DNA of 64,000 nucleotides, taken from an uncultured virus (IMG/VR IMGVR_UViG_3300021400_004213). Taxonomy: Duplodnaviria; Heunggongvirae; Uroviricota; Caudoviricetes. How positions within the stretch are numbered: the stretch's first letter is position 1; every line of letters starts with the position of its first letter. This document shows, in pieces, positions 4,637 to 62,499 of this stretch. The stretch lies in the IMG/VR virus record IMGVR_UViG_3300021400_004213; one strand, 5' to 3'. Made by a program: the position numbers and the translations under genes. The notes beneath the pieces were generated by a model, which was not told the origin of the DNA, ran no database searches, and worked only from the letters and a program-made list of their open reading frames with translations.

Positions 4637-4662
4637 AAATTAAACCGAAAGGACACGCCGAT

Positions 4663-6416: not shown

Positions 6417-6511
6417 AACCATACATCAAACAAAGCGAGAGAAAACTCAAAAGATACTGATGTGTCTGCAAGTTTTCTCTCTAATATTATATTCTGAAAG
6501 GAGGAATCACC

Positions 6512-8282: not shown

Positions 8283-8354
8283 CCTTTCGTCTCGCCTTTA
8301 TTCTCTACCGAGACTGTAGCTCGAAACCCCGCACACAAACGAAAGGGGGCAAAA

Positions 8355-8735: not shown

Positions 8736-8750
8736 AGGAGAGAAACCCGC

Positions 8751-10257: not shown

Positions 10258-10282
10258 CAACTACCCTATATAACTATATAAT
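10254..10282 (+). promoter_or_regulatory. consensus sigmaA promoter for nrdD
   Basis: TTGACA (10254-10259)-17 bp-TATAAT (10277-10282). Confidence 0.85.
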
Positions 10283-10322
10283 AATAAGAAAAAAATTTGA
10301 CCTACAAGGAGGAACACCAATC

Positions 10323-23336: not shown

Positions 23337-23771
23337 ATGAATGCAAATATCAACAGAGGTGATATTTTCTATATTACAGAAGACCCATCCAAGTCTGCTA
23401 CAGGTGCTGAAATATGGGCAGACAGACCAGGTCTCGTCATTTCCAATGACGCACTAAACAAAACATCGAACTGCGTCGAAGTAGTTTATCTTACGACCAG
23501 TCCAAATAAACGTCCTGCGCCAACGCATATTGCCGTCAAGTCTGGCAATAAGATGGCAATGGCAATGTGTGAACAAATTCATACAGTTGACAAAGCACGA
23601 CTCACAGACTTCATTGGGTCTATCACCGAAGACGAAATGATGGATATTGAGGGAGGCATCTTATTCTCCCTCCAGATCAATCGAGGACGAAATCCACAAG
23701 GGATTTTCAAGAAATATCAGAAAATGCTCGAAAAATATCCTGAACTCAAAGAAGCATACGATATTCCGTAA
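23337..23771 (+). CDS. PemK/MazF-family endoribonuclease
   Basis: RGDIFY, RPGLVISND, LTTS, CEQIHTVDKARL. Confidence 0.85.
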   Translation: MNANINRGDIFYITEDPSKSATGAEIWADRPGLVISNDALNKTSNCVEVVYLTTSPNKRPAPTHIAVKSGNKMAMAMCEQIHTVDKARLTDFIGSITEDEMMDIEGGILFSLQINRGRNPQGIFKKYQKMLEKYPELKEAYDIP

Positions 23772-27924: not shown

Positions 27925-29280
27925 TTACGGCCTCACTTTCGAAAACAGTACGAACTGATTCGCAGTTCGTTCATGCTTGAACTCAGACATTTCCTTCATA
28001 TAACCAATGTACCGAGCACTACGCTTCTCTACCTTCCAAGTATACCATGTATCATTTACGACAGATACAATAATAATGAGTGATGTTCCAAGAAAACTCA
28101 ATGACGGAACACCAAACACACGACTCATTACAATTGGAAGTGCTGCCAATATACAGAGTCCAAAACAACCTAAGAAATTCAGCTTACCGCCATATTTTTT
28201 CAAATAATTCTCTGTCTCAACGCCAGGAGCCACACCGACAATGACGGCACCTGATTTCTTCAAGTTTGATGCCACTTCAATTGGATTCATATTGACCAGC
28301 TGTGTATAATAACCAAACACAAAGATCATAAAGAAATAAATCAGCAATCCAATCGAAGCCACTGGATCTGAAAAATCCAACCACTTGTTCATATCAAAGA
28401 TACGAAGCCACGCAGCATTACCACCGAAAAGAGATGCAATAATCGAAAATACACTCAAAAAACTCGATGCAAAAATAACAGGTAAAACTGAATTTGGCAA
28501 CATCTTCAACGGCAAAACGCTGTTTTCATATACCAATTCATTATCAGACGTTGATTTATGATTATATTCCAAACGCACATCACGTTCTACATAATTCAAC
28601 CAATTTACAAAAATCAACATCACTAAACTAACAAAGACTACAACACTGACGAAAATCCAGTATTCAGATGATTTTCCTGACACTGACTGTGCTCTCGTAA
28701 GCATATTCGCAATTTCATGCGGAACATTACTTAAAATACCAGCAAGTAGGAACAACGAAATACCATTACCAAACAATTCGTCATCAATATAGTTTCCCAT
28801 AAAGGCAAACAGAATGGAACAAAGTGCCATGATGACAGTGCAAACTAACATTGCAACCCAATCGGTACGTACAAAAACACCATACGACATATAGGTGTTT
28901 AAAATTCCCAAAGAGGAAACAATACTTGTTATAATACTTAACCCGATTGTCAGCTGTTTAATCTTCTTCCGTCCAATCGCACCACTTCTTTGCAATTCAG
29001 CAATACTCGGAATCACAATTCCAAAGATTTGAATAAAAATCGATGCTGAAATATACGGTGAAATACCAAGCCCTGCGATGGATACACGTGACAACGCACC
29101 ACCCGTAAGAATATTCAACACACCAAATGATTCACCTAAACCTGATCCTGCAAAAAATGCATTTACATCAGTGAATGGTAATGGTATACAACATAACAGT
29201 CGATAAATTAGCAAAAACAAAATCGAACCGATCACTCGCTTTGCTAATGATTTTTTCTTCCACTTTCCTGCTACAATCAT
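27925..29280 (-). CDS. secY: preprotein translocase SecY (divergent)
   Basis: IPLP, LGISPYISASIFIQ, GNGISL, PVIFAS, NLKKSGAVIVGVAPG.ET, GTSLIIIVSV; about 10 TM helices. Confidence 0.92.
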   Translation of the reverse strand: MIVAGKWKKKSLAKRVIGSILFLLIYRLLCCIPLPFTDVNAFFAGSGLGESFGVLNILTGGALSRVSIAGLGISPYISASIFIQIFGIVIPSIAELQRSGAIGRKKIKQLTIGLSIITSIVSSLGILNTYMSYGVFVRTDWVAMLVCTVIMALCSILFAFMGNYIDDELFGNGISLFLLAGILSNVPHEIANMLTRAQSVSGKSSEYWIFVSVVVFVSLVMLIFVNWLNYVERDVRLEYNHKSTSDNELVYENSVLPLKMLPNSVLPVIFASSFLSVFSIIASLFGGNAAWLRIFDMNKWLDFSDPVASIGLLIYFFMIFVFGYYTQLVNMNPIEVASNLKKSGAVIVGVAPGVETENYLKKYGGKLNFLGCFGLCILAALPIVMSRVFGVPSLSFLGTSLIIIVSVVNDTWYTWKVEKRSARYIGYMKEMSEFKHERTANQFVLFSKVRP

Positions 29281-29334
29281 ACGTGAAAACTCCTTTTGTC
29301 CGATCAATCTTTAAAACTGCTCGTTTATGAACCT

Positions 29335-31979: not shown

Positions 31980-32101
31980 AAACGACAACCCTCTTTTCCA
32001 TAAAAGACCTAAAAAATAAGCGCCGCCCCTGTCAAATCAAGAGCGGCACTCAGGCGAACTATCAAGCACAAACATGCCGTCAATCGACCATGCCATGTTG
32101 A

Positions 32102-32437
32102 TTACTCACGATCACTATCGCGAACCTTCTTGTTCAACACGTTAGAAGATGCAAACTTCACGACACGATAGTCACGAACAGCACCTTTCTTTCCACCAAA
32201 CTGAACTGGATGTCCCTTATGAAGTTGTGCGTAAAACGATCCAAATCCAGTAAACGCTACGCGATGACCAGCACAAATTAATTCAATTAACTCGTCAATG
32301 CAAGCCTTAAATACCTCTTCGACGGTATACAAATCACGAACAGTTCCATCCTCAGATGGGTACTGCTCGGCTAGTTTTGCTTTTACATTTTCGAGAAATT
32401 TATCTTTATTGATTTTGTCATATGCTTGTTTATTCAT
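32102..32437 (-). CDS. second, divergent HU/IHF-like protein
   Basis: GHRVAFTGFGSF, VVKFASS..L. Confidence 0.75.
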   Translation of the reverse strand: MNKQAYDKINKDKFLENVKAKLAEQYPSEDGTVRDLYTVEEVFKACIDELIELICAGHRVAFTGFGSFYAQLHKGHPVQFGGKKGAVRDYRVVKFASSNVLNKKVRDSDRE

Positions 32438-32552
32438 AATCCAAATACTCTCCTTATCATACAAAAAAATTTGTAGATAAGCGTTGCTCATTCACACACT
32501 CAATCATGTTTTATTCATAAATGAACAAAACGTTTTACCCTCTTTAACAGTC

Positions 32553-33083: not shown

Positions 33084-33902
33084 TCATTTAGAAAAATCCT
33101 CTAATGCGGCTTCATAATCATCTACAGAAACACCCATATCGTGAATCAAAGGATTATCTATACCAAGTTTTGATAATTTCAAATCATCACTCTTAGTTTC
33201 TGTATATCCTGCATGAGCCAACGCAGCGGCTCTTGCTTCATCATGAATCTCACGTTTCATTGCTTCCCCAGCAGCTTTACGTTCAACCAAATCACCAGTT
33301 TCTTTTCCTGCTGCCACAGCAACCATCGTTTCACGTAATGCGGCATTACGATCTTCCAAATCCACATGGAAGGCATCGTCAGGAGCAGACGGAGCCTGTT
33401 CTTTCAAATCTTCTACATATTCATTATATTCAGCCGTACCCATCTGCAACGACGTTTGCGTCTTTGCATCATTTTCATGTGTATCAAGAGGCTTGAATAC
33501 AATAAACTGTTGCCTACGTTTCTGTTGTTTATCTTTTGCAACAAGTTTCTCAAGCTTCGTCATTTCCTGTACTTCAGCTTGTCTCGTCAAATGCAACTCT
33601 TCCGCTTCTTCAAAATGATGTTTTGCCTGACAATACGGGCAATCCACATCTCGCTCATCACGACCTATATAAAATACGTGACCGCAATTTGGACACAAAC
33701 ACTCAACCAAATTATCTTTGCTCGTATCAACAACATAAGTATCTGATTGAACAGCACGCTTACGAGAAGCATCCTTTGACTTTTGCATAAGACGGAGATT
33801 GCGGTCATCATCATTCGTATCGTTTGAACGGGAACCGCCAAACACATCGACTATATCCAGGTCATCATCCATGACCATAATATCATCGGGAACCATAATG
33901 CC
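33084..33902 (-). CDS. acidic protein with zinc ribbon
   Basis: CPNCG...CPYC. The AGGAGGT RBS suggests a start near 33896-33902; start uncertain. Confidence 0.65.
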   Translation of the reverse strand, partial: GIMVPDDIMVMDDDLDIVDVFGGSRSNDTNDDDRNLRLMQKSKDASRKRAVQSDTYVVDTSKDNLVECLCPNCGHVFYIGRDERDVDCPYCQAKHHFEEAEELHLTRQAEVQEMTKLEKLVAKDKQQKRRQQFIVFKPLDTHENDAKTQTSLQMGTAEYNEYVEDLKEQAPSAPDDAFHVDLEDRNAALRETMVAVAAGKETGDLVERKAAGEAMKREIHDEARAAALAHAGYTETKSDDLKLSKLGIDNPLIHDMGVSVDDYEAALEDFSK

Positions 33903-33969
33903 GTACCTCCTTTCATTTCCCATAATAACACTAAAAACAGCAAAACAAAAGAGGTAAAATATTGATTAA

Positions 33970-34572
33970 TCAGCCAAATTCATCAAAATGATATCCATCA
34001 TCAGGTAAATCATGGTTCGGACCGTCAATACTAGACACATAATTACCACGCTCATCATCATAATAAACATGTCCATCTTTCGTGGCTGTATCCTTCGCTA
34101 ACGCCCTAAAATTTTCTCGATTTGCACGCTTCTCTGCTGCCATACGTTCTTTACGATACGCAGAATATTCATCACCAAGTGCCTGAAGAGTATCAGCCGA
34201 CAAAACATCGTCAACATGATAGACAGCATCGTACAAATTTTCTCTTGCACCAGCAATATTATCCTGATGATTCACATCACCAAAATTTTCGTTATGAACT
34301 AACGAATCCATATATGCAGGCAGACGACCTGCTTCCATATCTTCACGAGTAAATCCTTCACGTTCTAAAACAGCATCATTTAATGCTGGAACTTGAGGTT
34401 CATATTCGGCACGCACCGATTCCTGTGCTTCATAATCATAAAATGATTCTGTTGCGGCAATAACCCTATCGTTAATGAATGGAACAGATGCTGAACGAAC
34501 TTCACCAAATTTACTCATATCTTTATCATATCGATCCACGAATGACAAATCCAATTTATAGCTTTCAGCCAT
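33970..34572 (-). CDS. acidic hypothetical protein downstream of the RNAP gene
   Basis: GGGAGG RBS; C-terminus HDLPDDGYHFDEFG. Confidence 0.7.
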   Translation of the reverse strand: MAESYKLDLSFVDRYDKDMSKFGEVRSASVPFINDRVIAATESFYDYEAQESVRAEYEPQVPALNDAVLEREGFTREDMEAGRLPAYMDSLVHNENFGDVNHQDNIAGARENLYDAVYHVDDVLSADTLQALGDEYSAYRKERMAAEKRANRENFRALAKDTATKDGHVYYDDERGNYVSSIDGPNHDLPDDGYHFDEFG

Positions 34573-34647: not shown

Positions 34648-37600
34648 TTAACTATTCGGACCATCATTGCCATCTTGCAAATCTTCAGGGCCTTTCACAC
34701 CACTGATATCAGGCAACTCACGATGCATTTTCTTACCATCAGTAGGTGCAGAAGATTTCTCTGTATCCGTTACAGGCGCCTCAGCTGTCTTCGTAAAGTC
34801 ATACTTGAAAGTACTACCCTTACCAGCAGCGGCGGCCTTCGCAGCAGGATCAAATCCAGCAGATGTCGAAACATCTTTACCACGGAACGCCTTTACGTCG
34901 CCTTCACTCTCAACAGAAAGGTCCACCGCACTATTTCTAACATCAATAGTGTTATGTACCATACGAGTATCCGATGGCTGAATAGCCTTCATCTCATCGG
35001 CATGACCATCTGCAGCCAATTGCATATTACGACGAATCTGTTCAGGCGCAAACTGATAGCTCGCAGAACCCTCATACAGATTACGTCCTTCCTGTGCCAT
35101 AGAGTTCAACAAATCACGCGCACGACCATCTGTCTGATAATAAGCAAGCTGGTCAACAGGAGATACATACTTACTGATAACCTGCGGATCCTCGATATTC
35201 AACATACGACCATCTGGACCAACCATAGCATCAGCAACACGCTCAACATCTTCGCGGCTCACAGAACCGCCAAGGTCAAGACCCTTCTTATCTTCATGAA
35301 CTTCCATGAATGTCTTAACCCATTCATCACGGGTAGCCTGAATTGGCTTACCTGTACCTCTATCATAAGCCACACGCCAATGAGGAACGCCCTTATCATC
35401 CGTACTCTTCTCCATGGAATAACCACGCCACAAATTACGGATATCAGCGTTTACTTTATCTTCCAGAATCTGAGCCTTTACTGGGTCATGCTTTGCCTGC
35501 AAAATACCCTGCGTTGCCAAATAAGACAAACGCAAACCCGACTCCAAAGCACCCGCATTCGGTTGCTCAGGTTCAAACTCAGACGCCTTATTACGAAGGA
35601 ACGATACCATTCGCTGCGAAACAGCACCCGCATTACCAGTACAATGTGCCTTGATAGCAGTAGATTTCTCGACATCACGAATATTCTGTTGTGTAACCAA
35701 CTGTTCCTCGGAAACCTTAACACTCTCTGGCAAAATACGTCCATCAGCATCATGGTCAGCCGTAAATCCTGCATACTGCATATAAGAATTCAGCTTACCC
35801 ATACTACCTTTTGCCTTATGGTCAACGACCGTAATCAAAGATTGCATTAAAGCTTCAGGACTCTTAAACGACAATGCTTCAGAGCCAACACCCTTGAATA
35901 CATCCTTCGTATAATCAGACAATTCACGCATCAAGTCCTTATTCTTCTGCATACGATCTTCAGCAGACAAAGATGTATCACGATAAACATCATTGTATTC
36001 ACGCTCTAAACGAATACGACGCTCACGAAGCGTTTCAGGCAATGCATCAACAGCACTCTTATATGCATCAGTTCCTTCGCCGTACTGTGCTTTCAACTTT
36101 TCCAAAGTTTCAGCACGACGCTCATTGTCAACTTCCTCATTGGAAATGACATCCATCGAATCGTTGAACATCAGTGCATAATCACCTTGACGGAAACCTG
36201 CAGATGCATCTTTTTCGCCACGAACACGTGAAAAATCAAGCATATTCTGATCAAACGAGAACAGACGATAGGCTTCTTCCTTCGCAGCATCTGTCTGAAC
36301 AGACTGAATAGCAACAGAGTCACCATCGAAGTCACCATCAAACGAAACAGCAATCGCTGGGTTAACAGCACAACCATGAAGTTCAGGATCAACCTTCACA
36401 TCCATATAACGCATACCATACGTACGAAGCAACGGGTCACGTGCAATCAATACACGGTCACCATCTTTCACACCGAGCTTGTCAGACAAACCAGGTGACA
36501 ATGACACTTGATTCAAATCCAAAGATGGATCTGGTGTCCAAACAGCCGTTGCAGACTTCGACATACGACGTGCCATCACAGAATCACGGAACAAATTATG
36601 TTTCGTATCCAAGATACGAGCATATACATCGTCCATGATACCATTATAATCTTGCTGAGCACTCCTCTGAGCATCAGACATTGCTTTACGACATTTCTCT
36701 TTATCAGCATCCGTTCCAGCAGTTGCCAAGTCAGCCTCAGCCTTCAAATATTTAACACCATTCTCATAAATACGCTGATACTGATTCGTATAATCATGCG
36801 TCATCTTCGTACCATCTTCGAATGTCTGTCCACTACGCAAATGCGAGGACATGACAGGTAACGCATACATTGCATGACCATTACGCTCCACACCTTCAAT
36901 CGGCTCTGTCTTCTGAGAAACACCCGTTTCTGGATTCGAAGCCATCTGTTCCAACGGGAACGGAAGTTCCATGAAACCGCCACGGCTACCAACCGTATCG
37001 GCAAACAACTTACCAAGATCTTTCGATTCAATATTAGCCAATGTTGCATCGTCAGGCATATGGAACGGATATCTCTCTTCGCCATTATGTGGCTTATATC
37101 CAAAACGGACATCACCTGTCTCAGAGAAATCCCAACCTAACGTATTCATATATTCACGAAGATTCGTTACTGCAGAACTGTTCGGACCATAATATTCAGC
37201 CATCATTGCAGGAGCGCCTTTAGCTGTCAACATCCAGCCCTGCTGAGCGGAGACCTTACGGCCTTTACCCTGCTTAACATCATCATCGTCATAACTCTTT
37301 GTATGATCTTCTGCTGTATGATGTGTAATCGTTACAGGCATGTAAGCAATACCGCCTTCCACAACACGATCATCAGACAACTTTAAATCTTCATGAGATT
37401 CAAGACCAAACTTCGCAGCAGCCGCATTAAAACGGCTACATGGTGAATATGGAGACTGAACAATATCCAAAGTTGGATTGTTCTTAAACAACTCAACGAT
37501 ATCCGTCAGTCCACGTTTCTCCGCCTCTGCTGGATCCATATTACGGTCTACAACCAGACCAACGATACTCTTGTTACCAGAGCTATCGCAAATCTTATCA

Positions 37601-40600
37601 CCAGGCATCAACGGACGAAGCTTACCATTCTCATCAAGCTGTTGATATTTCTCCGCCAAATCCTTCGAAATAACAGCACCATCATCGTATGTATAACCGC
37701 CGATAGTCAAAAACGCTACGCCAACACCTTTCAGTTTTGTCGTACCATCTTCTTGCTTAACCATTTCCGCACCAGCAATACCCGAACCTGTCATCAAGTT
37801 AGACACAGCCATCTGCTGACGGTCTGCAGGAATATTCGACGCATATTGCATCTCAGGTGCATACATAATTGGAGCACGACCATTCGGATTATCAGAAAAA
37901 TGAGGTGTACCATCAATATTAACACCTGCACCGACCATGAAATAACGAATCGCACCCTGATTCTTACCAGAACCAGACATAACAGGGTCAAATAACCTAT
38001 CGCTATTCTCAGCCGTGATGGCAAAGTTCTTATGACCCAATTCGTTATACCAATCATGACCATTATCATTCGTCAGTTCATGAACAGACACAAAATCACT
38101 GTTCTTTTCTCTCTGAGCAAAACGATATTCAGCATTAACCGATGATTCCTCAATCAATTCTTTCGGAAGATGACAAAGACGACGGTTTGTTTTAAAAATC
38201 AACTGAAGTCGATCCTCAGGCATATTTGTCATAGCCATCTGGCGCAAATATGTCTCTTTCAAACTCTCCTGCTCACCATTCTCCTTCACTTCAGGTTCAA
38301 TCATAATCTTATATCCAGTAGTATATAAGCCACGATAAGTATTATTAATACTCGTTGTCGTACCTGTATGGAGAACCATATCATCTGGAATAGCAGACAA
38401 ATCTGACGGAACATTCTCCGCAACATTCTGAACATCATAACGAATACGATTTTGAATGTTTTCTACCAAAACCTGTGGCAAACCACGGAAACGATAACGC
38501 TCTTCAATGCTCTGACCTGTACCATCGTCAGGTGCAATATACGCATCGTATCCAGGTGTAAACAACTTATTCTTCGAACCATTATAATGGGTCTCTACAA
38601 GACCATATTCATCAGGTTCAAATACCTGTCCAATCTCACCTTGTAAAGGAACGAACTTATTGACATCAGTGCCAACCGCCACCTGTGCATCATAACGAAT
38701 GACACCCATCTTATCAATCTTGATATCATTCGGATCAACCTTACAAGCCGTCTCACGTAACGATGTTACCATCGTATCAAGCACAACACGTAAATACTCA
38801 GATGTCTTGGCTTTCTCAACCAAAGGCTCTGCAGATGCTTCATCAAAACGAAGAAGCTTATCTTGCATCGTTCCTGTCTCAAAATCATTACCAAGTAATT
38901 CTTTACCAGTAAACTCAAGTGTTCTCATCGCAGAAACAAGATTATCCTTATTTCTCGGAACGCCATGAGGACCCTCCATGAACTGTGCGACCAATGACGG
39001 CGAAAAACGCAAACCATCAGCATTTGGCTCAAACTGACCAAACATCATATCAACACTATCACGAAGATGTGCTCTGATATTCTGTTCAGGTGTACCAACA
39101 TACGTATTCTGTCCAGTCAGACTATTATACGATGTTGGAACAGCACTTAATTCGTCATCTTCAATTTCCGAATCAGATTCACGGTCTTCCGTCAGATTCA
39201 TTGACTCAAACAACTCTGCAAACACAGGATCGTTATCTCTAAAGGTCTGACTACCATCTGGCTGATTTAAAGTCAAACGACCACGAAGCACATTCCAATA
39301 AGTAAGCTGTGCAGGTGCGATCGTCGGATCACCAGACAAATCAGGAATATAACTCTCATTTGGATCATCAGGTTCACCGTTTAACGGGTGATTATGATGT
39401 TCCTCAATCAAATGATCGAGATTAATACGCTGCTCAAAATTATCACGAGCTGACGAAATAGCATCACGCAAGAAATCTTCCGCAGCTTCCTTTGTCTCAA
39501 ACATCAAATGCGCATCGCTATGATTATTCGAACTGTTCAAACCTAAGAACATATTGTTCTTAACTTCACGACCCCTTGCATCACGACGTGTCGGATTAAT
39601 AGGATTCTGAACAGTACCAAAGGAAAACTGCATCTCCAGCTTACCTTCAGGTGAACCCTTCTTCGGACGCATGAAAGTAGTACGTTCGTCTTCATTTCCA
39701 GCACCACGAGCACGGCGCGTACTAATCGTACCGACCTTACCACCAGAACTAGACAAACTAGCAGGACGATCTACACTACGCCCCATCGCATAATCAACCA
39801 ACTTAAGCGTATCATCAATTGATGGTGTATACGCATCTCTATCAGCTTTGGAACGAGCAGTCAAATACAAACTATTGCCATCATTGTAAACACGTCCAAT
39901 ATACAAACCATTCTGACGGTCAGTAGCACCAGGCTGACGAGTATCGGTCAAACGAATAGATACCTTTGTTCTATCAATCACAGCCTTCAACTGACCTGGA
40001 TTCGTATCTGGACGAATCGAATATTGCGTACCTGTTTCGTCCAAATGCTCCAAAATAGCAATCGAACGATCCGTCATCTGACGAGTCATACGACGGTCTT
40101 CAGGAACCTGTTCCATCCAGCGACTTGCTTCACGAAATTCCTTATCAGTCATGAAACCACGCAAACGGGACAAACCCGACGCATCAGCAATTGTCGCCAC
40201 AGGACCAGCATTACGCAATTCATAAACACTCGTACGCTCATCAGCTGGAGCTCGACCTGTACCATCTTCCTTACGGAATCTCATCTGTAAGAACTGATCA
40301 CCACGCTGACGTTCTGCTTCGATAGGCAAATCTCTATCCACGAAAACATATTCCATGCGACCATCACGAGAAATCTGACGTGGTACAAACACATCAGATG
40401 GATTTCGATACAAAATCTCCGTACCGTGTTCCAAAATCGTTTCGCGTTCCGCATAACGCTCATCAAAAGGAGAACAAGGAATCACATTATCCGTGCTGAA
40501 TTTCATACCCTCTGTCTTACGCTTAGCCGCTTCAGCTCCTCGCAAAGCAATACCTGTGACATCGACCCATTCAGCCAAATAACTATTGTACTTATCATTA

Positions 40601-40932
40601 AACGCATCAATATCACTATACGTTGCATTGTTCGGGTCTAACGGACTAAAAACCTGTTGAAAAGCTACACGAACCTGACTAGGACGAATCGTATCCAGCG
40701 TACAAGGAATCTGATTTCCTTCAGAATCTAAAACAGGCTCCCATTGTCCTGACGGACCACGACGATCCTGTGCCTGTTGCCCAACAGCATCCAACCATTT
40801 ATCGTGTAACGCTCTACCTTTTGATGCCGAAATATACTCGCCACCAGATTGGCGAACACCAACATTATAGTCCTCTACCATACGAGCAAACACATATTCA
40901 TTCAAATTTGCATTAACATTAAAAACGCTCAT
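34648..40932 (-). CDS. single-chain two-barrel (beta + beta'-like) DNA-dependent RNA polymerase
   Basis: beta-like: DRQQMAVSNLM, GYTYDDGAVIS, PGDKICDSSGNKSIV, DIVQSPYSPCSRFN, HHTAED, GRKVSAQQGWML. beta'-like: RRMSKSATAVWTPDP, VLIARDPLL, NPAIAVSFDGDFDGD, KAKGS, TGNAGAVSQRM, ATQGILQAKH. Confidence 0.88.
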   Translation of the reverse strand: MSVFNVNANLNEYVFARMVEDYNVGVRQSGGEYISASKGRALHDKWLDAVGQQAQDRRGPSGQWEPVLDSEGNQIPCTLDTIRPSQVRVAFQQVFSPLDPNNATYSDIDAFNDKYNSYLAEWVDVTGIALRGAEAAKRKTEGMKFSTDNVIPCSPFDERYAERETILEHGTEILYRNPSDVFVPRQISRDGRMEYVFVDRDLPIEAERQRGDQFLQMRFRKEDGTGRAPADERTSVYELRNAGPVATIADASGLSRLRGFMTDKEFREASRWMEQVPEDRRMTRQMTDRSIAILEHLDETGTQYSIRPDTNPGQLKAVIDRTKVSIRLTDTRQPGATDRQNGLYIGRVYNDGNSLYLTARSKADRDAYTPSIDDTLKLVDYAMGRSVDRPASLSSSGGKVGTISTRRARGAGNEDERTTFMRPKKGSPEGKLEMQFSFGTVQNPINPTRRDARGREVKNNMFLGLNSSNNHSDAHLMFETKEAAEDFLRDAISSARDNFEQRINLDHLIEEHHNHPLNGEPDDPNESYIPDLSGDPTIAPAQLTYWNVLRGRLTLNQPDGSQTFRDNDPVFAELFESMNLTEDRESDSEIEDDELSAVPTSYNSLTGQNTYVGTPEQNIRAHLRDSVDMMFGQFEPNADGLRFSPSLVAQFMEGPHGVPRNKDNLVSAMRTLEFTGKELLGNDFETGTMQDKLLRFDEASAEPLVEKAKTSEYLRVVLDTMVTSLRETACKVDPNDIKIDKMGVIRYDAQVAVGTDVNKFVPLQGEIGQVFEPDEYGLVETHYNGSKNKLFTPGYDAYIAPDDGTGQSIEERYRFRGLPQVLVENIQNRIRYDVQNVAENVPSDLSAIPDDMVLHTGTTTSINNTYRGLYTTGYKIMIEPEVKENGEQESLKETYLRQMAMTNMPEDRLQLIFKTNRRLCHLPKELIEESSVNAEYRFAQREKNSDFVSVHELTNDNGHDWYNELGHKNFAITAENSDRLFDPVMSGSGKNQGAIRYFMVGAGVNIDGTPHFSDNPNGRAPIMYAPEMQYASNIPADRQQMAVSNLMTGSGIAGAEMVKQEDGTTKLKGVGVAFLTIGGYTYDDGAVISKDLAEKYQQLDENGKLRPLMPGDKICDSSGNKSIVGLVVDRNMDPAEAEKRGLTDIVELFKNNPTLDIVQSPYSPCSRFNAAAAKFGLESHEDLKLSDDRVVEGGIAYMPVTITHHTAEDHTKSYDDDDVKQGKGRKVSAQQGWMLTAKGAPAMMAEYYGPNSSAVTNLREYMNTLGWDFSETGDVRFGYKPHNGEERYPFHMPDDATLANIESKDLGKLFADTVGSRGGFMELPFPLEQMASNPETGVSQKTEPIEGVERNGHAMYALPVMSSHLRSGQTFEDGTKMTHDYTNQYQRIYENGVKYLKAEADLATAGTDADKEKCRKAMSDAQRSAQQDYNGIMDDVYARILDTKHNLFRDSVMARRMSKSATAVWTPDPSLDLNQVSLSPGLSDKLGVKDGDRVLIARDPLLRTYGMRYMDVKVDPELHGCAVNPAIAVSFDGDFDGDSVAIQSVQTDAAKEEAYRLFSFDQNMLDFSRVRGEKDASAGFRQGDYALMFNDSMDVISNEEVDNERRAETLEKLKAQYGEGTDAYKSAVDALPETLRERRIRLEREYNDVYRDTSLSAEDRMQKNKDLMRELSDYTKDVFKGVGSEALSFKSPEALMQSLITVVDHKAKGSMGKLNSYMQYAGFTADHDADGRILPESVKVSEEQLVTQQNIRDVEKSTAIKAHCTGNAGAVSQRMVSFLRNKASEFEPEQPNAGALESGLRLSYLATQGILQAKHDPVKAQILEDKVNADIRNLWRGYSMEKSTDDKGVPHWRVAYDRGTGKPIQATRDEWVKTFMEVHEDKKGLDLGGSVSREDVERVADAMVGPDGRMLNIEDPQVISKYVSPVDQLAYYQTDGRARDLLNSMAQEGRNLYEGSASYQFAPEQIRRNMQLAADGHADEMKAIQPSDTRMVHNTIDVRNSAVDLSVESEGDVKAFRGKDVSTSAGFDPAAKAAAAGKGSTFKYDFTKTAEAPVTDTEKSSAPTDGKKMHRELPDISGVKGPEDLQDGNDGPNS

Positions 40933-41081
40933 AATTTTACTCCTTTCCGCTCCTGCACGCGAATGTCAGGATGCGCCCATTTGGGTCATGATATTGAGTA
41001 AAACGAAATATCTCCGTTTCTTAAATAAGTATAATCGAGAAGGAAAAAGAACGCAAGATACTAAAAAATATATCAGAAATG

Positions 41082-41124
41082 AAAAAAGACACCCTGTTGC
41101 ACGCACTACAACAGAATGTCTTTT
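41082..41124 (-). terminator. terminator hairpin inside the roughly 300-nt leader of the RNAP gene
   Basis: Minus-strand AAAAGACAUUCUGUUG-9 nt-CAACAGGGUGUCUUUUUU. The G-U pairs form only on this strand. Confidence 0.7.
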
Positions 41125-41236
41125 CTCCAAGAAAGAGGTAAAAAACAAAAAAAGAACGACCTGACCTGCGGAACACCACCGCACCACACAAAAAGAAAAC
41201 AAGAATGAGCAATTCTTATCCCTATCTGATAGTCAC

Positions 41237-41265
41237 ATCATACCAAAGAAAATACAAAATGTCAA
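41237..41265 (-). promoter_or_regulatory. sigmaA promoter facing the RNAP gene
   Basis: TTGACA-17 bp-TGnTATGAT. Confidence 0.8.
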
Positions 41266-41389
41266 CACAGATTTATTCATTTATGAACACTTACGATTGC
41301 ATGACAACAAATTGAGCATCAGAGCCAATAAAACCTAGTTCATCCACAAAAAATTTTCAAAATCTACTCATTTATCAGATAGAAACATG

Positions 41390-41418
41390 TTGACATTTGC
41401 TTTCCTACCAACTATAAT
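41390..41418 (+). promoter_or_regulatory. consensus sigmaA promoter for the HTH-helicase operon
   Basis: TTGACA-17 bp-TATAAT, followed by AGACTCA twice. Confidence 0.85.
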
Positions 41419-41470
41419 AGACTCAGAAAGACTCAACTTTACTATATTTCGTTAAAGGAGGTATAATATC

Positions 41471-41680
41471 GTGAAAAATGGTACAAGATGTCCATATATG
41501 ACGACATCCGAATTCGCAGAGCGAATTGGAATCCATCCGCAAACCTTGCGTAAATGGGATAAATCAGGTACGCTAAAAGCACACCATAAAACCGCCAGTG
41601 GTCGCCGCTACTACTCGGAAGAGCAAGCGCAGGAATTTTTAAACGGAAATAATCAAGAGGAAAAAACAGACGCGAGGTAA
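41471..41680 (+). CDS. stand-alone MerR/excisionase-like HTH protein
   Basis: EFAERIGIHPQTLRKWDKSG...GRRYYS; AAGGAGGT RBS. Confidence 0.85.
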   Translation: MKNGTRCPYMTTSEFAERIGIHPQTLRKWDKSGTLKAHHKTASGRRYYSEEQAQEFLNGNNQEEKTDAR

Positions 41681-41722
41681 TCGCAATGATTAAAAAATAC
41701 ACAAGAAAGGAGGTAAATCAGA

Positions 41723-43372
41723 TTGGCACGCACGAAAGACGAAACATTGCGAGACCTTACGACAGCCTACCTTTCGAACATCAACCTAAATTCACCGCCA
41801 GATCCAGCGACTGTTCAAGCAGATATTCTCGACCAAACACAACTTGCGTTTCAAACCGAGAATGCAATTAGAGCCAAGGCCAAGCTGAACCAGTGGAAAA
41901 TTCCAGATAAACTGGCACCAGCCCAAATTGCCGATATTATCATGACGCTCTACCCTGTTGCCAACATCGCTTATGGCAGTATGAATGCAGACCCAGAATA
42001 TGATGTTTTATCCATCTATCAAAATGATGGACCCGACAAAGGCATTTATACATCCAATCAGCAGATGTTTTACAGATTGATTCATCAATACTGTTACACA
42101 CTGTCCGATAAAGAAACAAACGAAACGATTGCTATGCTTCGCAATAATGCACCTCGCAAAACGCGAAACGATAAACGCAATCTCATCGCTGTGAACAATG
42201 GAATCTTTGATTATGATACAAAGACGCTCCATCCATTTGACCCGAACTTGATTTTCACATCAAAATCAAAGGTCAATTACAATCCAAACGCCACCAATCC
42301 CGTCATTCATAACAATGACGACGGAACCGACTGGGACGTTGAATCTTGGATGAAAGAACTCTTCGATGACCAAGAAATTATTGACCTGATGTGGCAAATT
42401 CTCGGAGCGATTATCAGACCGAATGTTCCATGGGGCAAATCAGCGTGGTTCTATTCCAGCACAGGCAATAACGGCAAAGGAACCCTTTGCGAACTGATGC
42501 GTCAGATTGCAGGCGAAGGCACATATGCATCCATCCCACTGGCCGACTTCAGTAAAGACTTCATGCTTGAACCACTCCTGAAAGCATCAGCAATCATTGT
42601 CGATGAAAATGATGTAGGAACATTCGTAGATAGAGCGGCAAACTTGAAAGCCATCATCACAAATGATGTCATTCAGATGAACAGAAAGTTTAAGATGCCC
42701 ATCGCCTTCCAATTCAAAGGCTTCATGGTACAATGCTTAAACGAAATGCCGCGAATCAAAGATAAATCCGACTCATTCTATCGTCGTCAATTGTTCATTC
42801 CGTTCAATAAATGCTTTACAGGCAGAGAAAGGAAATACATTAAACATGATTATCTGCACAGACAGGATGTTTTGGAATATATACTCAACAAAGTTCTGAA
42901 CACAAATTACTACACACTGTCGGAACCTGAAGCATGCAAGATTGTCCTTGAAGAATACAAGGAGTTTAACGACCCAATCCGTCAATTTGTGGAAGAGATT
43001 CTTCCTACATGCAAATGGGATCTACTCCCCTACACATTCCTCTACGACTTGTATCAACAATGGTTCAAAAAGAACGCACCAACAGGTACTATCTCAGGAC
43101 GCAATACATTTATTAACGACCTGAACAAAGTTCTCTACGGAAATCCATACTGGTATCCGATACCTGATAACAAAGCTATCAGACCTGGACACAAAATGGA
43201 TGCTTCAGAACCTCTGATTAAAGAATATCATCTTCAGTCGTGGATGAACCCAACTTATCGAGGTACTGACCCAGAGAAACTGTGTCACCCAGAACTCAAG
43301 AGTAATTATAAAGGTATCTTGCGATACGAAACGAAAGATGATAATACATCAGATAACGATGCCACTTCATAA
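41723..43372 (+). CDS. P4/D5-family SF3 helicase (primase-associated)
   Basis: NNGIFD (D5_N), STGNNGKGT Walker A, IVDEND, QCLNEMP, FYRR. Confidence 0.88.
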   Translation: MARTKDETLRDLTTAYLSNINLNSPPDPATVQADILDQTQLAFQTENAIRAKAKLNQWKIPDKLAPAQIADIIMTLYPVANIAYGSMNADPEYDVLSIYQNDGPDKGIYTSNQQMFYRLIHQYCYTLSDKETNETIAMLRNNAPRKTRNDKRNLIAVNNGIFDYDTKTLHPFDPNLIFTSKSKVNYNPNATNPVIHNNDDGTDWDVESWMKELFDDQEIIDLMWQILGAIIRPNVPWGKSAWFYSSTGNNGKGTLCELMRQIAGEGTYASIPLADFSKDFMLEPLLKASAIIVDENDVGTFVDRAANLKAIITNDVIQMNRKFKMPIAFQFKGFMVQCLNEMPRIKDKSDSFYRRQLFIPFNKCFTGRERKYIKHDYLHRQDVLEYILNKVLNTNYYTLSEPEACKIVLEEYKEFNDPIRQFVEEILPTCKWDLLPYTFLYDLYQQWFKKNAPTGTISGRNTFINDLNKVLYGNPYWYPIPDNKAIRPGHKMDASEPLIKEYHLQSWMNPTYRGTDPEKLCHPELKSNYKGILRYETKDDNTSDNDATS

Positions 43373-43476
43373 AAGAAGTGGCATTCGCTTTATATAACAA
43401 CAAATACACTTACACAAGTTATTCCGAGTGCAACACGGATATAACTTCTTACACACAAAGGAGAAAAAGACTCGTT

Positions 43477-43917
43477 ATGATCAATAAAATTGACATTTTT
43501 GACGGCGAACACGCTTTCCTCAGCAACTTCTATCGTGCTGATGTCGAATTTGAAGGCGTCATTTATCCCACAAATGAACATGCCTTCCAAGCCGCCAAAA
43601 CCTTAGACCCGAAAATCAGACAGGAATTCCTCACCGAATGTCCGACTCCTGGCAAAGCCAAACGAAAAGGCCGCCACGTTGACCTTCGACCCGACTGGGA
43701 AAAAATCAAAGTGAACATCATGAGAACCATTGTGCGGAACAAGTTCAACGCACACCCTACGCTCGCAGCAAAGCTTCTCGCTACGGGAGATGCCACTCTC
43801 ATTGAAGGAACTACATGGCATGACCTCTTCTGGGGTATAGACATTACCACAGGTAAAGGTGAAAATCATCTCGGTCAGATTCTCATGCAGGTCCGAAAGG
43901 AACTTCGTCCTAAGTAA
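43477..43917 (+). CDS. NADAR (YbiA-like) family protein
   Basis: FLSNFY, YPTNEHAFQAAK, LRPDWE, KF, LLATGD..LIE, FWG, GENHLGQILM. Confidence 0.92.
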   Translation: MINKIDIFDGEHAFLSNFYRADVEFEGVIYPTNEHAFQAAKTLDPKIRQEFLTECPTPGKAKRKGRHVDLRPDWEKIKVNIMRTIVRNKFNAHPTLAAKLLATGDATLIEGTTWHDLFWGIDITTGKGENHLGQILMQVRKELRPK

Positions 43918-46366: not shown

Positions 46367-46801
46367 ATGATTCACTTTGTTCAGGGCGATATGTTCGCCA
46401 CACCATACGATGCACTCGTAAATGCCGTGAATTGCGTCGGCGTTATGGGTAAGGGACTTGCCCTTACCTTCCGAAATAAGTATCCGAATAACTACACGCA
46501 ATACGCACAAATCTGCAAAAGCAAACAACTTCGCCCTGGACAGATTTTCGTGACCGATATTAACGGTCAGACAATCATCAATGCCGCAACAAAAGACCAT
46601 TGGAAAAACCCATCTTACGAAGAATGGGTTATCAATGCAATCGTCCACATTGCCACGTGGCTTATGTTACACCCGTCCGTAAAGACCATTGCCGTGCCAA
46701 AGCTTGGCTGCGGTCTCGGTGGACTTGATTGGAATCGCATCCGTCCTGTCATGGAAGACGCGTTCTCCGATTGTCCGCAGGACATCTATATCTTCGAATA
46801 G
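46367..46801 (+). CDS. macrodomain ADP-ribosylhydrolase (DarG/TARG-like)
   Basis: GDMF, VNAVNCVGVMGKGLA, TKDHW, PKLGCGLGGLDW. Confidence 0.9.
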   Translation: MIHFVQGDMFATPYDALVNAVNCVGVMGKGLALTFRNKYPNNYTQYAQICKSKQLRPGQIFVTDINGQTIINAATKDHWKNPSYEEWVINAIVHIATWLMLHPSVKTIAVPKLGCGLGGLDWNRIRPVMEDAFSDCPQDIYIFE

Positions 46802-46810
46802 GAGACGCCT

Positions 46811-47515
46811 ATGAATGACCCATTCTACAAACAGGACTTAACTGATGAAGTTTGGCCCTATAATCTCATCTTAGAGGTTAAAACTTGTGCTGGAATACAC
46901 ACAAGAAATGATGACGGCACGCCCGTCATGATTATCAAGGACGAACTTCCATCAGATATCGAAGGCACCATTGCCTATCTTCTCTGCAGACTTACTGACA
47001 GAGAACAAAACATGCTTCTTTGCCGCTATAAGGACGGCATGACACTCGAACAGATTGGTCGTGACAATAACCTCACGAAAGAACGTGTCCGCCAAATCAT
47101 CAACAAGACTATCCGCAAGATGAGTCATGGTGCTGGCAGACGCATGATTACCAGCGGACTTCGTAACTATTTCTATGAAACTATACGAAACGAAATGCAA
47201 TCTGAAATCGACCGTGCAAAGAAAGAAGCCTATGCTAACGGTTGGAACTCAGCCTACACTACCAATGACGGAACAAAAGTCGTACCGAAAATCAATAAGA
47301 TGGACAATGTTTCCATCATAGAATTAGATTTATCGGTTCGAACGTACAATGCACTCAAGCATTACGGCATTTGCACCGTCAAAGAGCTCAATGCACTTTC
47401 CGTTGATGAAATCAAAAACATTCGCAACCTCGGTTCCAAATGTTGTGTCGAAATCTTCAACAAACTCACAGACTGTGGCTACGACACCACAGAAAAAGAA
47501 GCTTTGCTTATCTAA
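46811..47515 (+). CDS. sigma70 region-4 / RNAP alpha-CTD fusion protein
   Basis: LTDREQ...TLEQIG....LTKERVRQI (sigma4) and IIELDLSVRTYNALK..GI.TV.EL...IRNLGSKC..EI (alpha-CTD). Confidence 0.85.
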   Translation: MNDPFYKQDLTDEVWPYNLILEVKTCAGIHTRNDDGTPVMIIKDELPSDIEGTIAYLLCRLTDREQNMLLCRYKDGMTLEQIGRDNNLTKERVRQIINKTIRKMSHGAGRRMITSGLRNYFYETIRNEMQSEIDRAKKEAYANGWNSAYTTNDGTKVVPKINKMDNVSIIELDLSVRTYNALKHYGICTVKELNALSVDEIKNIRNLGSKCCVEIFNKLTDCGYDTTEKEALLI

Positions 47516-55898: not shown

Positions 55899-57743
55899 TC
55901 AACTATCACCGCTGGCATTGCCAATATATGCATTTTTCTTAATGCCATTATAACTACCAATATAACGATATACTTTGTATCCTTCGTTATGTCCATAGTT
56001 ACCCATTTCACCAATACCTGGGGAACGCGATTCATATGATGCATGCACCATCTCGCCTGGATTTCCAGGATATTTCTTTTGGACTTCTTCGTTACCGACA
56101 TACATCCAAATATGACCATGCTCACAATGCTTACCACGAGCTTCGCTACGACGTTGTCTCGTTGTTACAAAAATATCACCTGGCTGGAGCGGTTCACTCA
56201 ATGTATCATAAAGACCTAAGTCTTTCCACAATTCTGGATGCGTAGACATATACACATCCTGTGCACTTGTATCACCAACAGGGAAATTATCATCAGCGCC
56301 AGACCACACAACGGCAGTCGCAACACCACGGTCACACGACTGATAAATCCAGTCGCCAGGATACACAGCGTCCTTGACAGCCTTATATAACTCTGTGCCA
56401 TCGTTACCACGACTTTCGTCAATTGTCGGCCATGCATACGCAACAGCCGCCGCTGCAAGTGTCGAATTATCAGCCTGCGGTTCCTTTGGTAAACATTCTT
56501 CCTCTACCGCTTTCTTATGTTTATCTGTCGCCGCAGATACTACAGAACCTGCCATAGTAACCACATCATTTGCAAATCCACTAAATTCTCGTGTAATCGC
56601 TGCAGACTGTGGCGCAAGTGCTGTATACCAATACTGAGCGTATTGTTGTCTCTCAGGAGATTCGTATCTCTCATATTCAGGCGTATTCGATGTTCGTTCA
56701 ACATATCCCAGCCATGCGGCAGCCGCATCACGAACATTCGTCTTTGCCTTTGCATCATTCATGAAAGCCTGAATGTGTGCTTGCCACTCTGCACTACCAA
56801 ATAAATTGGCTAACTGCAGATCCATATCATACCAATGTTTACCAGCATGTCCTCTTGCATACTCAATTAACTCTTTTGCTTCATGCCCTGTCCATTGTAT
56901 CAAACCCAAACCACAAATATAACCCGACGACGGATTACCATATTCAATACAATAACCAGGCATAGATGGATTAGAGAACGTACCAGACTTATACGCATGG
57001 TAAATCGTGTTCAAAACATGAGACTTCATCTGCTCATTCGGAAACTCATTGCCTTCAGGCAACAACGCTGCCTTTTTCGGTCCAATCTGAAATGGTTCAC
57101 TAGAAACACATTCCACCGCGAATGGATCAAAATAACCACTCTCTTGCTGCATGTTACCAAGCATACCAGCACACTGTTCATCGGTCATACCCAATGCTTT
57201 GCCAACAGCCCAAATCTTCTTGGCGTTTTCAAGCATCTGCTCATTCACATCAACTGCAGGGGGTGTCATTCCGCTCAATTTATTCGCTTCATCTACCATA
57301 TCTGCACAAGGATCCCAATAATCCTCCTGCTTAAAAATCATCTGTTGATGCTGATAATTTATAAGACTAATTACACCTGATGAACCACCACCGAGTAACA
57401 AGACAGCTAGAGTGATACTCATAACCTTTTTAGATACATTCATGAATGATGCGGCTTTACCGACACCATCAGACACACCATGAGCAATTGGCTTAATACC
57501 AAACCAACTGTTCTTGACTGCATAGAAAACATTTTTCATTGCACCGCCAGCTGTATTAGCGGCAGAATCTGCAAATTCTTTTGCATTCTTCACAAAATTC
57601 ACATTCTGTTTGGAATATACATTAGTTACATCACGAGATTCACCTTCAGGCTTCACTTCGTTTGGAGAGTTAATTGGAACAACTTTTCTGACAAACGGCT
57701 GCGGAGTATTTCCGCCAGAAGAATCATTTGCTCGCTTCAACAT
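55899..57743 (-). CDS. membrane-anchored bifunctional peptidoglycan hydrolase (lysozyme-like + NlpC/P60-CHAP-like)
   Basis: AGMLGNMQQES, GLGLIQWT, WYDMDLQL; C-terminal SCDRGV, LQPGDI, GHIWMY. Confidence 0.8.
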   Translation of the reverse strand: MLKRANDSSGGNTPQPFVRKVVPINSPNEVKPEGESRDVTNVYSKQNVNFVKNAKEFADSAANTAGGAMKNVFYAVKNSWFGIKPIAHGVSDGVGKAASFMNVSKKVMSITLAVLLLGGGSSGVISLINYQHQQMIFKQEDYWDPCADMVDEANKLSGMTPPAVDVNEQMLENAKKIWAVGKALGMTDEQCAGMLGNMQQESGYFDPFAVECVSSEPFQIGPKKAALLPEGNEFPNEQMKSHVLNTIYHAYKSGTFSNPSMPGYCIEYGNPSSGYICGLGLIQWTGHEAKELIEYARGHAGKHWYDMDLQLANLFGSAEWQAHIQAFMNDAKAKTNVRDAAAAWLGYVERTSNTPEYERYESPERQQYAQYWYTALAPQSAAITREFSGFANDVVTMAGSVVSAATDKHKKAVEEECLPKEPQADNSTLAAAAVAYAWPTIDESRGNDGTELYKAVKDAVYPGDWIYQSCDRGVATAVVWSGADDNFPVGDTSAQDVYMSTHPELWKDLGLYDTLSEPLQPGDIFVTTRQRRSEARGKHCEHGHIWMYVGNEEVQKKYPGNPGEMVHASYESRSPGIGEMGNYGHNEGYKVYRYIGSYNGIKKNAYIGNASGDS

Positions 57744-59692: not shown

Positions 59693-59835
59693 AATATATA
59701 GACCTCCATTTGTAATATCGCAAAATAAATGCATGATTTATCCAACATATATAGAATAGCACAGAAAGATTGATTTATCAACATATTATCTAAAAGAGCC
59801 GTGAAAAGAATTATTCACGGCCCTATTTAGCGCAA

Positions 59836-62487: not shown

Positions 62488-62499
62488 ATCTGACTCTCC

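Follow-up and report, generated by a model that had tools for sequence, protein, structure and literature searches.

A predicted single-chain, two-barrel RNA polymerase from large mobile elements of Gram-positive bacteria, encoded beside conjugation genes in most relatives

Fused RNA polymerases (RNAPs) of the NCgl1702 type, in which homologues of the β and β′ subunits lie in one polypeptide, have been known from computational work since 2003 (Iyer et al., 2003, cited in PMC2919709; also PMC7824862). In the sections that deal with it, NCgl1702 is presented as a distant β::β′ fusion of 2169 amino acids (aa), likely to stem from a phage or mobile element and having neither known relatives nor biochemistry (Ruprich-Robert and Thuriaux, 2010; PMC2919709); a table in the same paper includes the natural β::β′ fusion of Helicobacter. 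The fused RNAPs of this type are described as being without the SBHM ‘flap’ insert in the β barrel, and YonO of the SPβ prophage, given in the relevant part of PMC5467207 as the only characterized bacterial single-chain relative, is placed in the branch resembling RNA-dependent RNA polymerases (RdRPs; PMC7824862). Our literature search found no experimental study on fused β::β′ RNAPs of bacterial mobile elements, and the word ‘polymerase’ is absent from a survey of type IV secretion system components (PMC4027160); synteny with transfer genes may already be in print. Here we analyse a stretch of 64,000 nucleotides (nt), the window, from the IMG/VR uncultured virus record IMGVR_UViG_3300021400_004213, and in particular its open reading frame (ORF) P0001, of 2094 aa, at 34648..40932 (-), which an earlier note had picked out as a fused RNAP. 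The reading that we favour, with moderate confidence and on the basis of sequence comparison and predicted structure, is that P0001 is a single-chain two-barrel DNA-templated RNAP that would serve RNA synthesis during transfer or establishment of conjugative-type elements.

Compared with NCgl1702 by published description only, P0001 fits in as a new member of the NCgl1702-like fused RNAPs, a type that the earlier note had named. Both are single polypeptides of about 2100 aa (2169 against 2094) in which the β part lies N-terminal of β′, both are attributed to a mobile element, and in both only the barrel, switch and funnel motifs are recognizable in the sequence. They differ in that the 2010 paper, in its account of the protein, had no relatives for most of NCgl1702, whereas the whole length of P0001, including its N-terminal 700 aa, is kept in well over 100 proteins. 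Bacterial β and β′ have in common with P0001 the two double-psi barrels, the DFDGD triad, the two lysines and the β-then-β′ order; however, the core of P0001 is much smaller (about 560 + 700 aa), it is preceded by an extra 700-aa N-terminal module, and no α or ω gene adjoins its gene. The E. coli β and β′ subunits have about 1340 and 1400 aa. YonO is likewise a single chain, distantly related to the multisubunit RNAPs and encoded by a mobile element of a Gram-positive bacterium, as the relevant part of PMC5467207 describes it, but it has a mass of about 100 kDa as against about 230 kDa for P0001, which has no sequence match in the phage collection. In structural comparison, P0001 scored higher with multisubunit enzymes than with QDE-1, of the RdRP-like branch to which YonO is assigned. 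Orf6 of the yeast killer plasmid pGKL2 is, according to the passages on it in PMC2919709, a fused Rpb2::Rpb1 homologue of strongly reduced size on an extrachromosomal element, but it is eukaryotic and cytoplasmic, has 982 aa and has no link to conjugation. The crAss-like phi14:2 gp66 (6vr4) and P23-45 gp96 (8h2n) are giant single-chain two-barrel enzymes delivered with the incoming DNA, which offers a functional analogy for the boldest reading given below; their structural similarity to P0001 is weaker (Z 6.9 and 10.3), and P0001 lacks a phage context.

The gene is uninterrupted from its ATG at 40932 to the stop codon at 34648-34650, with an AAAGGAG ribosome-binding site 7 nt 5′ of the ATG. 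A script search for exact strings placed all ten peptides quoted in the earlier note at the residues given there, with DFDGD at nt 36319-36333. The modules and motifs of P0001, from N- to C-terminus, are as follows.

aa 1-700, 38833..40932 (-): N-terminal module, family-specific, with a confident predicted fold and no solved counterpart
aa ~710-1270, 37123..38805 (-): β/Rpb2-like module, consisting of an N-terminal β1-like domain and a double-psi barrel (from the structural search described below, named VIA, and PF00562 in homologues)
aa 1079-1089: GYTYDDGAVIS
37681..37686 (-): D1083-D1084, acidic pair of the β-like barrel within GYTYDDGAVIS, invariant
aa 1111-1121: GDKICDSSGNK, with K1113 and K1121 spaced by 8
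37570..37596 (-): K1113...K1121, the two lysines, invariant
aa 1156-1169: DIVQSPYSPCSRFN
aa 1204-1209: HHTAED
aa 1224-1235: GRKVSAQQGWML
aa ~1271-1968, 35029..37122 (-): β′/Rpb1-like module (from Foldseek, VIA and PF00623)
aa 1455-1464: RRMSKSATAV
aa 1494-1502: VLIARDPLL
36433-36441 (-): R1498-D-P1500, on the N-terminal side of DFDGD, invariant
aa 1534-1538, 36319..36333 (-): DFDGD metal-binding motif
aa 1765-1775, within 35488..35640 (-): TGNAGAVSQRM, candidate bridge-helix segment (putative assignment)
aa 1807-1815, within 35488..35640 (-): TQGILQAKH, candidate trigger-loop segment (putative assignment)
aa 1995-2094, 34651..34950 (-): acidic, charged C-terminal tail, poorly conserved and outside the models

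Alignment with 46 relatives (31-55% identity to P0001) showed that D1083, D1084, K1113, K1121, R1498, D1499 and P1500, the three aspartates D1534, D1536 and D1538, and G1766, G1769, T1807, Q1808, K1814 and H1815 are invariant in 46/46 sequences. From this alignment, P0001 appears to be conserved over its whole length and under selection at each expected catalytic residue. That P0001 is a catalytically dead relic, its fold kept for a structural or DNA-binding role, is barely credible in view of this invariance among sequences only 31-55% identical and of an ORF that is intact over 6.3 kb.

Profile searches point in the same direction for the β′ half. PF00623 (RNA_pol_Rpb1_2), the sole Pfam domain recognized in P0001, matches aa 1487-1558 with 37.1 bits against a cut-off of 25.3, and phmmer against the PDB aligned aa 1439-1568 with Rpa190, NRPD1, Rpo1N and bacterial β′, with RRMSKSATAV, VLIARDPLL and DFDGD each opposite its counterpart motif in Rpa190 and NRPD1. 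A profile built from the 46 relatives lifted the bacterial β′ matches in the PDB to E 5.8e-12. Subunit A′ of archaea was matched in NCBIfam at sub-threshold level only, and PHROGs gave weak matches to phage RNAP β families. Pfam PF00562 (RNA_pol_Rpb2_6) was not detected in the β half of P0001 itself; it scored above the cut-off in 7/7 actinobacterial homologues tested and in 0/5 closer relatives, and its position in the former maps through the family alignment to P0001 aa 1098-1195, spanning GDK...GNK and DIVQSPYSPCSRFN. Given the PF00623 score, the motif pairing in the PDB and the invariance over 46 relatives, the RNAP motif matches are, as far as sequence comparison can tell, not due to chance.

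To this can be added an AlphaFold2 model of P0001 aa 800-1995, computed with the family alignment as input (predicted local distance difference test, pLDDT, 87.6; predicted template modelling score, pTM, 0.85). Among the matches listed by Foldseek against the PDB, 50/50 were bacterial RNAP chains (E 3.8e-13 to 1.6e-11), which are β′ by the usual chain naming, several of the entries being confirmed as β′ by profile search. A structural search of the model against representative structures (VIA), in which model residue 1 corresponds approximately to P0001 aa 800, gave the following matches, where 6edt_D was taken as β′ and 6j9e_C as β by chain-naming convention (rmsd, root-mean-square deviation).

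7ob9_A, human Pol I largest subunit: Z 16.6, rmsd 4.4 Å over 558 residues, model residues 473-1165
2pmz_A, archaeal largest subunit: Z 16.5
9mu7_A, Pol II largest subunit: Z 16.4
6edt_D, M. tuberculosis: Z 13.6, rmsd 4.3 Å over 564 residues
8qma_A, second-largest-subunit type: Z 12.2, within model residues 1-473
4c2m_B, second-largest-subunit type: Z 11.0, within model residues 1-473
6j9e_C, second-largest-subunit type: Z 10.8, within model residues 1-473

The largest-subunit alignments cover model residues 471-1169. Converted to P0001 numbering, the β-like part of this model is aa ~800-1270 and the β′-like part aa ~1271-1968. The earlier note had suggested a check by AlphaFold and Foldseek; once run, the aa 800-1995 model matched both largest and second-largest subunits of RNAP, and the proposed single polypeptide with a β-like followed by a β′-like module is borne out by PF00623, by the VIA and Foldseek matches and by the invariant catalytic residues. 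Single-chain two-barrel enzymes scored lower by VIA (QDE-1 11.9, P74 gp62 10.5, P23-45 gp96 10.3, crAss gp66 6.9), as did ZmRDR2 (Z 9.5 versus 13.6-16.6 for the largest subunits); no YonO structure was among the matches listed. When predicted viral structures were searched, giant-virus RPB1 homologues were best and a few phage proteins came next, none of them close. The two-barrel fold is common to enzymes of other chemistries, as the relevant part of PMC7824862 sets out, and QDE-1 aligns across both barrels of the model (model residues 16-1185, 444 residues). An RdRP like QDE-1, or a DNA polymerase like PolD, is nevertheless very improbable, since the multisubunit DNA-dependent enzymes match more strongly (Z up to 16.6), their Rpb1/β′ chains reach model residue 1165-1169 through the C-terminal β′-like region, and the Pfam matches are to Rpb1 and Rpb2 domains. 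Overall, sequence and model make it close to certain that P0001 is homologous to two-barrel RNAPs and has kept its active site intact, and likely that it makes RNA.

A second model, of P0001 aa 1-859 (pLDDT 86.2, pTM 0.77), was used to examine the N-terminal part. Residues 710-859 resemble the β N-terminal domain with weak VIA scores (8qma_A, Z 5.8; 6j9e_C, 5.5; 4kbj_A, the M. tuberculosis β B1-B2 fragment, 4.5), a likeness that nevertheless fits the continuation seen in the aa 800-1995 model. The unrecognized portion, put at about 950 aa in the earlier note, therefore shrinks to about 700 aa, with aa 710-950 belonging to the β-like module. For aa 1-700, Foldseek against the PDB gave 0 matches at E≤1e-3 and the ESM Atlas yielded no usable match; a likeness to the SRP54 GTPase (best VIA Z 6.0 over 80 residues) was treated as chance level. 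The suggestion that the N-terminal half acts in place of α or σ thus finds no support, as aa 1-700 match no solved fold. In the 46-sequence alignment, 22 positions are invariant within the first 812 residues of P0001, including S154, P155, G170, D309, G313, Q314, R327, G346 and G352 in the N-terminal module. Searching 1.84 billion representative proteins by phmmer with aa 1-700 gave 173 at E≤0.001. Nearly all of these have 1780-3138 aa and carry the match at their N-terminal end, and the few that are short may be fragments. Homologues on Lactococcus and Staphylococcus plasmids align only from P0001 aa 684 or 933 onward. Together, the full-length matches and the later start of the Lactococcus and Staphylococcus homologues indicate that the N-terminal module is branch-specific and travels with the polymerase core.

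The family is large. A search of 5.8 billion proteins with P0001 gave 148 matches at E≤0.001 among 7999 candidates scored, comprising metagenomic relatives of 1943-2277 aa (37-54% identity over 94-100% of P0001) and actinobacterial relatives of about 1850 aa (about 30% identity over 87-95%), the latter including Streptomyces, Arthrobacter, Kocuria and Saccharopolyspora; the annotation is mostly ‘hypothetical’. Locus scans found 24 loci in IMG/VR and 67 in a one-genome-per-species set, and the named genomes among them are all Actinomycetota by their titles. Named homologues occur on plasmids and on actinobacterial chromosomes. Thirteen records of a plasmid collection match P0001, three of them at full length (Rhodococcus pGS01, a Streptomyces plasmid and a Gordonia sp. 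KTR9 plasmid); in pGS01 the RNAP gene comes after a 4.2-kb gene for a type IV coupling protein (T4CP). The homologue on the Lactococcus cremoris plasmid pJM1A (L101, 12802-19950) is a 7.1-kb ORF annotated as hypothetical; its neighbours there are an exopolysaccharide cluster and genes for a Y-family polymerase and a CHAP-domain protein, and the plasmid, of 182 kb, has been typed as non-mobilizable. A sample of one actinobacterial order, in which at most two candidates per genome were scored so that weak members may have been missed, contained a match at E≤1e-20 in 1/401 genomes (the centre genome only). Such sporadic occurrence is expected of mobile DNA. DNA nearly identical to the window is present in sequencing runs of 10 studies, most of those labelled by organism being bovine gut metagenomes; one run is possibly the source.

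The evidence that connects the RNAP gene to conjugation comes from its neighbourhood. When the ORFs of the 91 related loci were clustered, 86/91 loci had a member of one cluster as the immediate upstream, same-strand neighbour of the RNAP gene, with a median gap of 254 nt. Each member of this cluster that was scanned carries PF02534 and PF12696, which identifies a VirD4/TraG-type coupling protein; Pfam confirmed the T4CP in L035, L008, L093 and G001, a complete relative described below. Among the five loci without a clustered T4CP, the gene of L093 is split in two, the reading frames of L033 are extensively broken and the contig of L039 has a length of 5.5 kb. A MobL relaxase gene of the same orientation lies 11-19 kb upstream of the RNAP gene at 6/6 places in 5/5 genomes; the MobL and T4CP families both match in the control genome of C. 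glutamicum as well, which hints indirectly at homology with the NCgl1702 protein of that species. The VirB4-like AAA_10 family was found in 0/5 relatives, other VirB4 families being outside the search, so that nothing firm follows. The neighbourhood further includes, as conserved members, a ClpA/B-like AAA+ ATPase (78 loci), a 690-aa protein of no known function (68), a 600-aa protein, likewise of no known function, just downstream (71) and an HU-like protein (53 loci by strict clustering, 78/93 by tblastn), and the usual order in relatives is MobL relaxase, AAA+ ATPase, unknown gene, T4CP, RNAP, unknown gene, HU-like. Judged from this gene order, the RNAP gene is one of the conserved backbone genes that large plasmids and integrative elements have in Gram-positive bacteria. 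In the Streptomyces chromosome copy L035, the AAA+ ATPase and the coupling protein (45-2291 and 4646-9787) both carry LAGLIDADG_3 domains, which suggest that these transfer genes contain inteins.

A complete relative, G001, is the IMG/VR record behind locus L016; the element is circular, its sequence has 121,615 nt and a G+C content of 38%, and the repeats at its ends are direct. IMG/VR rates it (loci L094-L100) as a virus, 100% complete. Its Pfam families include a MobL relaxase, a coupling protein, a Phage_lysozyme2 wall hydrolase, a sortase, an actin-like partition protein, a single-stranded DNA-binding protein (SSB), a D5-type primase-helicase and LPXTG adhesins (antigen I/II, SpaA and TQ); the gene order in its transfer region includes hydrolase, MobL, AAA+, 653 aa, T4CP, RNAP, HU. 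Twelve ORFs of the window match G001 and are collinear with it (SNF2 helicase, primase-like, guanylate-kinase-like, YdjM, AAA_5, a 579-aa protein, ClpB-like, UvrD-like, HU, D5 primase, macro and hydrolase), which with the RNAP makes thirteen common genes. The window has extra blocks, one with NrdD/G, an M50 peptidase, TraX, SecY and L,D-transpeptidase, and another on the plus strand at 41.7-54.4 kb, where G001 has its T4CP and MobL genes. Genes of the window away from the RNAP gene are as follows.

9511-12740 (+): NrdD and its activase
18561-20411 (+): ClpA/B-like double AAA+ ATPase, a backbone gene syntenic with the RNAP locus in relatives
20477-23248 (+): UvrD-like helicase, a backbone gene syntenic with the RNAP locus in relatives
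23337-23771 (+): PemK/MazF-like toxin gene, directly after the UvrD-like helicase gene, a pairing found in 20 related loci
27925-29307 (-): SecY paralogue (PF00344, E 7.7e-68), adjoining TraX, DUF1963 and L,D-transpeptidase genes
43378-43917 (+) and 46367-46801 (+): NADAR and Macro domain proteins, with ADP-ribose-processing folds, close together
46811-47515 (+): 234-aa protein with sigma-70 region 4 (aa 58-105, E 2.1e-12) and an RNAP α C-terminal domain (αCTD; aa 160-220, E 9.9e-18)
52875-53564 (+): ThyX
55899..57743 (-): 614-aa protein with Phage_lysozyme2 (PF18013), whose orthologue lies inside the G001 transfer region
58034-59734 (-): 566-aa serpin-domain protein (PF00079, E 1.3e-17), just upstream of the Phage_lysozyme2 gene
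59836-63996 (-): GyrA and GyrB

G001 also encodes a NADAR gene. The 234-aa protein joins two domains that contact promoters and activators, an uncommon combination, and might redirect the RNAP of the host. The load of gyrase, nucleotide reductase and ThyX genes on an apparent plasmid is more typical of huge phages or megaplasmids, and, together with the D5-like primase, the Phage_lysozyme2 domain, the 24 related loci in IMG/VR viral contigs and the structural matches to P23-45 gp96, P74 gp62 and crAss gp66, it raises the possibility, in line with how IMG/VR classifies relatives, that the element is a jumbo phage with P0001 as its virion or non-virion RNAP. Against this, tblastn of P0001 with 50,697 phage records gave no match, the HK97 capsid family occurs in 0/5 complete relatives, and Pfam scans of the window and of G001 detected no capsid, portal or terminase family. 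PHROGs searches with 31 window ORFs gave one weak tail-protein match only, on the lysozyme-domain ORF. In view also of the relaxase, T4CP, sortase, adhesins and partition actin of G001, and of the named homologues on plasmids and actinobacterial chromosomes, we regard a phage origin of the element as very remote. By its gene content (a relaxase, T4CP, sortase and adhesins, and no capsid), G001 is a conjugative plasmid misfiled as a virus, and the 24 related IMG/VR contigs may be misfiled plasmids too.

The surroundings of the RNAP gene bear on how it would be expressed. The promoter-like and hairpin features were found by consensus or pattern match only.

41390-41418 (+): perfect σ70 consensus promoter, TTGACA-17-TATAAT, 12/12, facing the D5-type primase-helicase gene and divergent from the RNAP promoter-like site
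41237..41265 (-): σ70-like promoter, TTGACA-17-TATGAT with a TG extension, 11/12, facing the RNAP gene
41081..41127 (-): 20-bp hairpin and T run, 3′ of that promoter and 5′ of the ATG
33084..34572 (-): ORFs of 200 aa and 279 aa, downstream of the RNAP gene and co-oriented with it, of no known family
32102..32491 (-): HU/IHF-like DNA-binding protein (PF00216; hidden Markov model E 1e-24), a conserved downstream partner
32017..32052 (-): strong terminator-like hairpin of 15 pairs and a T run, after the HU-like gene

The hairpin at 41081..41127 is possibly a leader or attenuator; otherwise the intergenic region 40900-41760 holds short repeats only. Four co-oriented ORFs (200 aa, 279 aa, 143 aa and the HU-like protein) lie 3′ of the RNAP gene, and the 279-aa ORF is kept downstream of it in 7/10 relative loci checked. 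The promoter-like site and the terminator-like hairpin that frame this set suggest an operon from RNAP to HU that would be transcribed by the host polymerase. Contigs from 4/4 RNA-library runs map to the RNAP ORF and the HU-like gene at 92-100% identity, which is consistent with transcription and not proof of it, as such libraries can contain DNA; none of the four runs gave contigs on 41225-42595, a gap that proves nothing.

Taken together with the gene neighbourhood, these features can be accommodated in the reading that we favour. The host RNAP would express P0001 from the σ70-type promoter, and P0001 would then make RNA on the element DNA in connection with transfer and establishment; this RNA would serve as early transcript, as primer on the single strand that enters, or as both. 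The recipient's transcription machinery could thereby become less necessary to the element. Helpers might be found in the HU-like protein and the UvrD-like helicase, and the N-terminal module might supply template recognition or docking. A role at this stage is suggested by the constant position behind the T4CP and relaxase genes, with HU-like, UvrD-like and SSB genes. In E. coli, the recipient's UvrD is required for conversion of the transferred single-stranded DNA to the double-stranded form, according to the part of PMC10085688 concerned, and a helicase and polymerase of the element's own would fit this step. As to the exact role of P0001, be it early transcription, priming or ordinary plasmid transcription, we can only infer it.

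A number of observations weigh against this interpretation. The five closest loci searched (L107, 52% identity; L102, 45%; L104-L106, 41%) showed no T4CP in their flanks, with less than 10 kb upstream available in three of the five, so that adjacency to the T4CP would be a feature of the branch at 30% identity; the window's own branch has lost it. No relaxase, T4CP or VirB4-like gene is present within the 64-kb window, and the term ‘conjugative’ for its element therefore rests on relatives: of the earlier note's assignment to a conjugative-type element, the collinearity of 12 ORFs with G001 and the T4CP upstream in relatives speak for it, whereas the window itself supplies neither a relaxase nor a coupling protein. 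The related loci are not independent, as many are from Streptomyces and 24 are from one metagenome. In the region, 43 σ70-like promoter matches were counted against 31.5 ± 5.9 expected, and direct repeats of at least 18 nt over the 64 kb form low-copy, low-identity families only, with no repeated non-canonical promoter motif, from which it follows that the host RNAP may transcribe the element. Primase-like genes in G001 and in the window also mean that a priming role for P0001 is not needed.

A rival reading is a resident plasmid transcriptase. Like the RNAPs of killer plasmids or the non-virion RNAPs of phages, it would act on a set of plasmid genes once the host is established, and transfer would not be its particular task. 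Such an enzyme is suited equally well by the RNAP fold and active site. In the window and the five closest loci the gene is found in a block with HU, L,D-transpeptidase, SecY and TraX genes and not beside a T4CP: L107 has the RNAP, the 279-aa protein, HU, L,D-transpeptidase, SecY and TraX in common with the window, and keeps the SecY/TraX/DUF1963/L,D-transpeptidase block at 37-40% identity; L104 and L105 share the RNAP, the 279-aa protein, HU and L,D-transpeptidase, and L102 the 279-aa protein. Moreover, the fusion of sigma-70 region 4 and αCTD and the many housekeeping-like genes suggest a semi-autonomous lifestyle. We nevertheless consider a purely resident enzyme possible rather than probable, as the gene sits tightly behind the T4CP in the great majority of loci and downstream of the MobL relaxase, and as the 64 kb contain no repeated candidate promoter for a second polymerase.

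A bolder version of the transfer-linked reading, which by analogy we hold to be doubtful, would make P0001 the conjugative counterpart of the phage virion RNAPs, a host-independent establishment system of broad-range plasmids. The ClpA/B-like AAA+ ATPases of the same backbone would unfold P0001, the adjacent coupling protein would pass it to the type IV system, and P0001 would refold in the recipient and begin RNA on the incoming single strand, as early transcripts and/or primers. Specificity or docking would be built into the enzyme through its N-terminal module, with the HU-like and UvrD-like proteins as co-factors. Passage of the P0001 protein into the recipient is pure conjecture on our part. 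Plasmid conjugative primases such as Sog and TraC are likewise transfer-linked and make RNA on the transferred strand in the recipient; their fold is unrelated to that of P0001.

To prior knowledge the present analysis adds a more precise map of the domains, the large size of the family and its strong link with conjugation. The fused RNAP family is conserved end to end and physically tied to conjugative transfer genes, and its N-terminal 700-aa module is predicted to be a confidently folded domain without a solved counterpart. If active, P0001 would be a minimal single-chain version of the cellular RNAP core, which would inform the requirements of that core and might offer an orthogonal transcription tool, and it would point to an unstudied step in the establishment of plasmids in Gram-positive bacteria.

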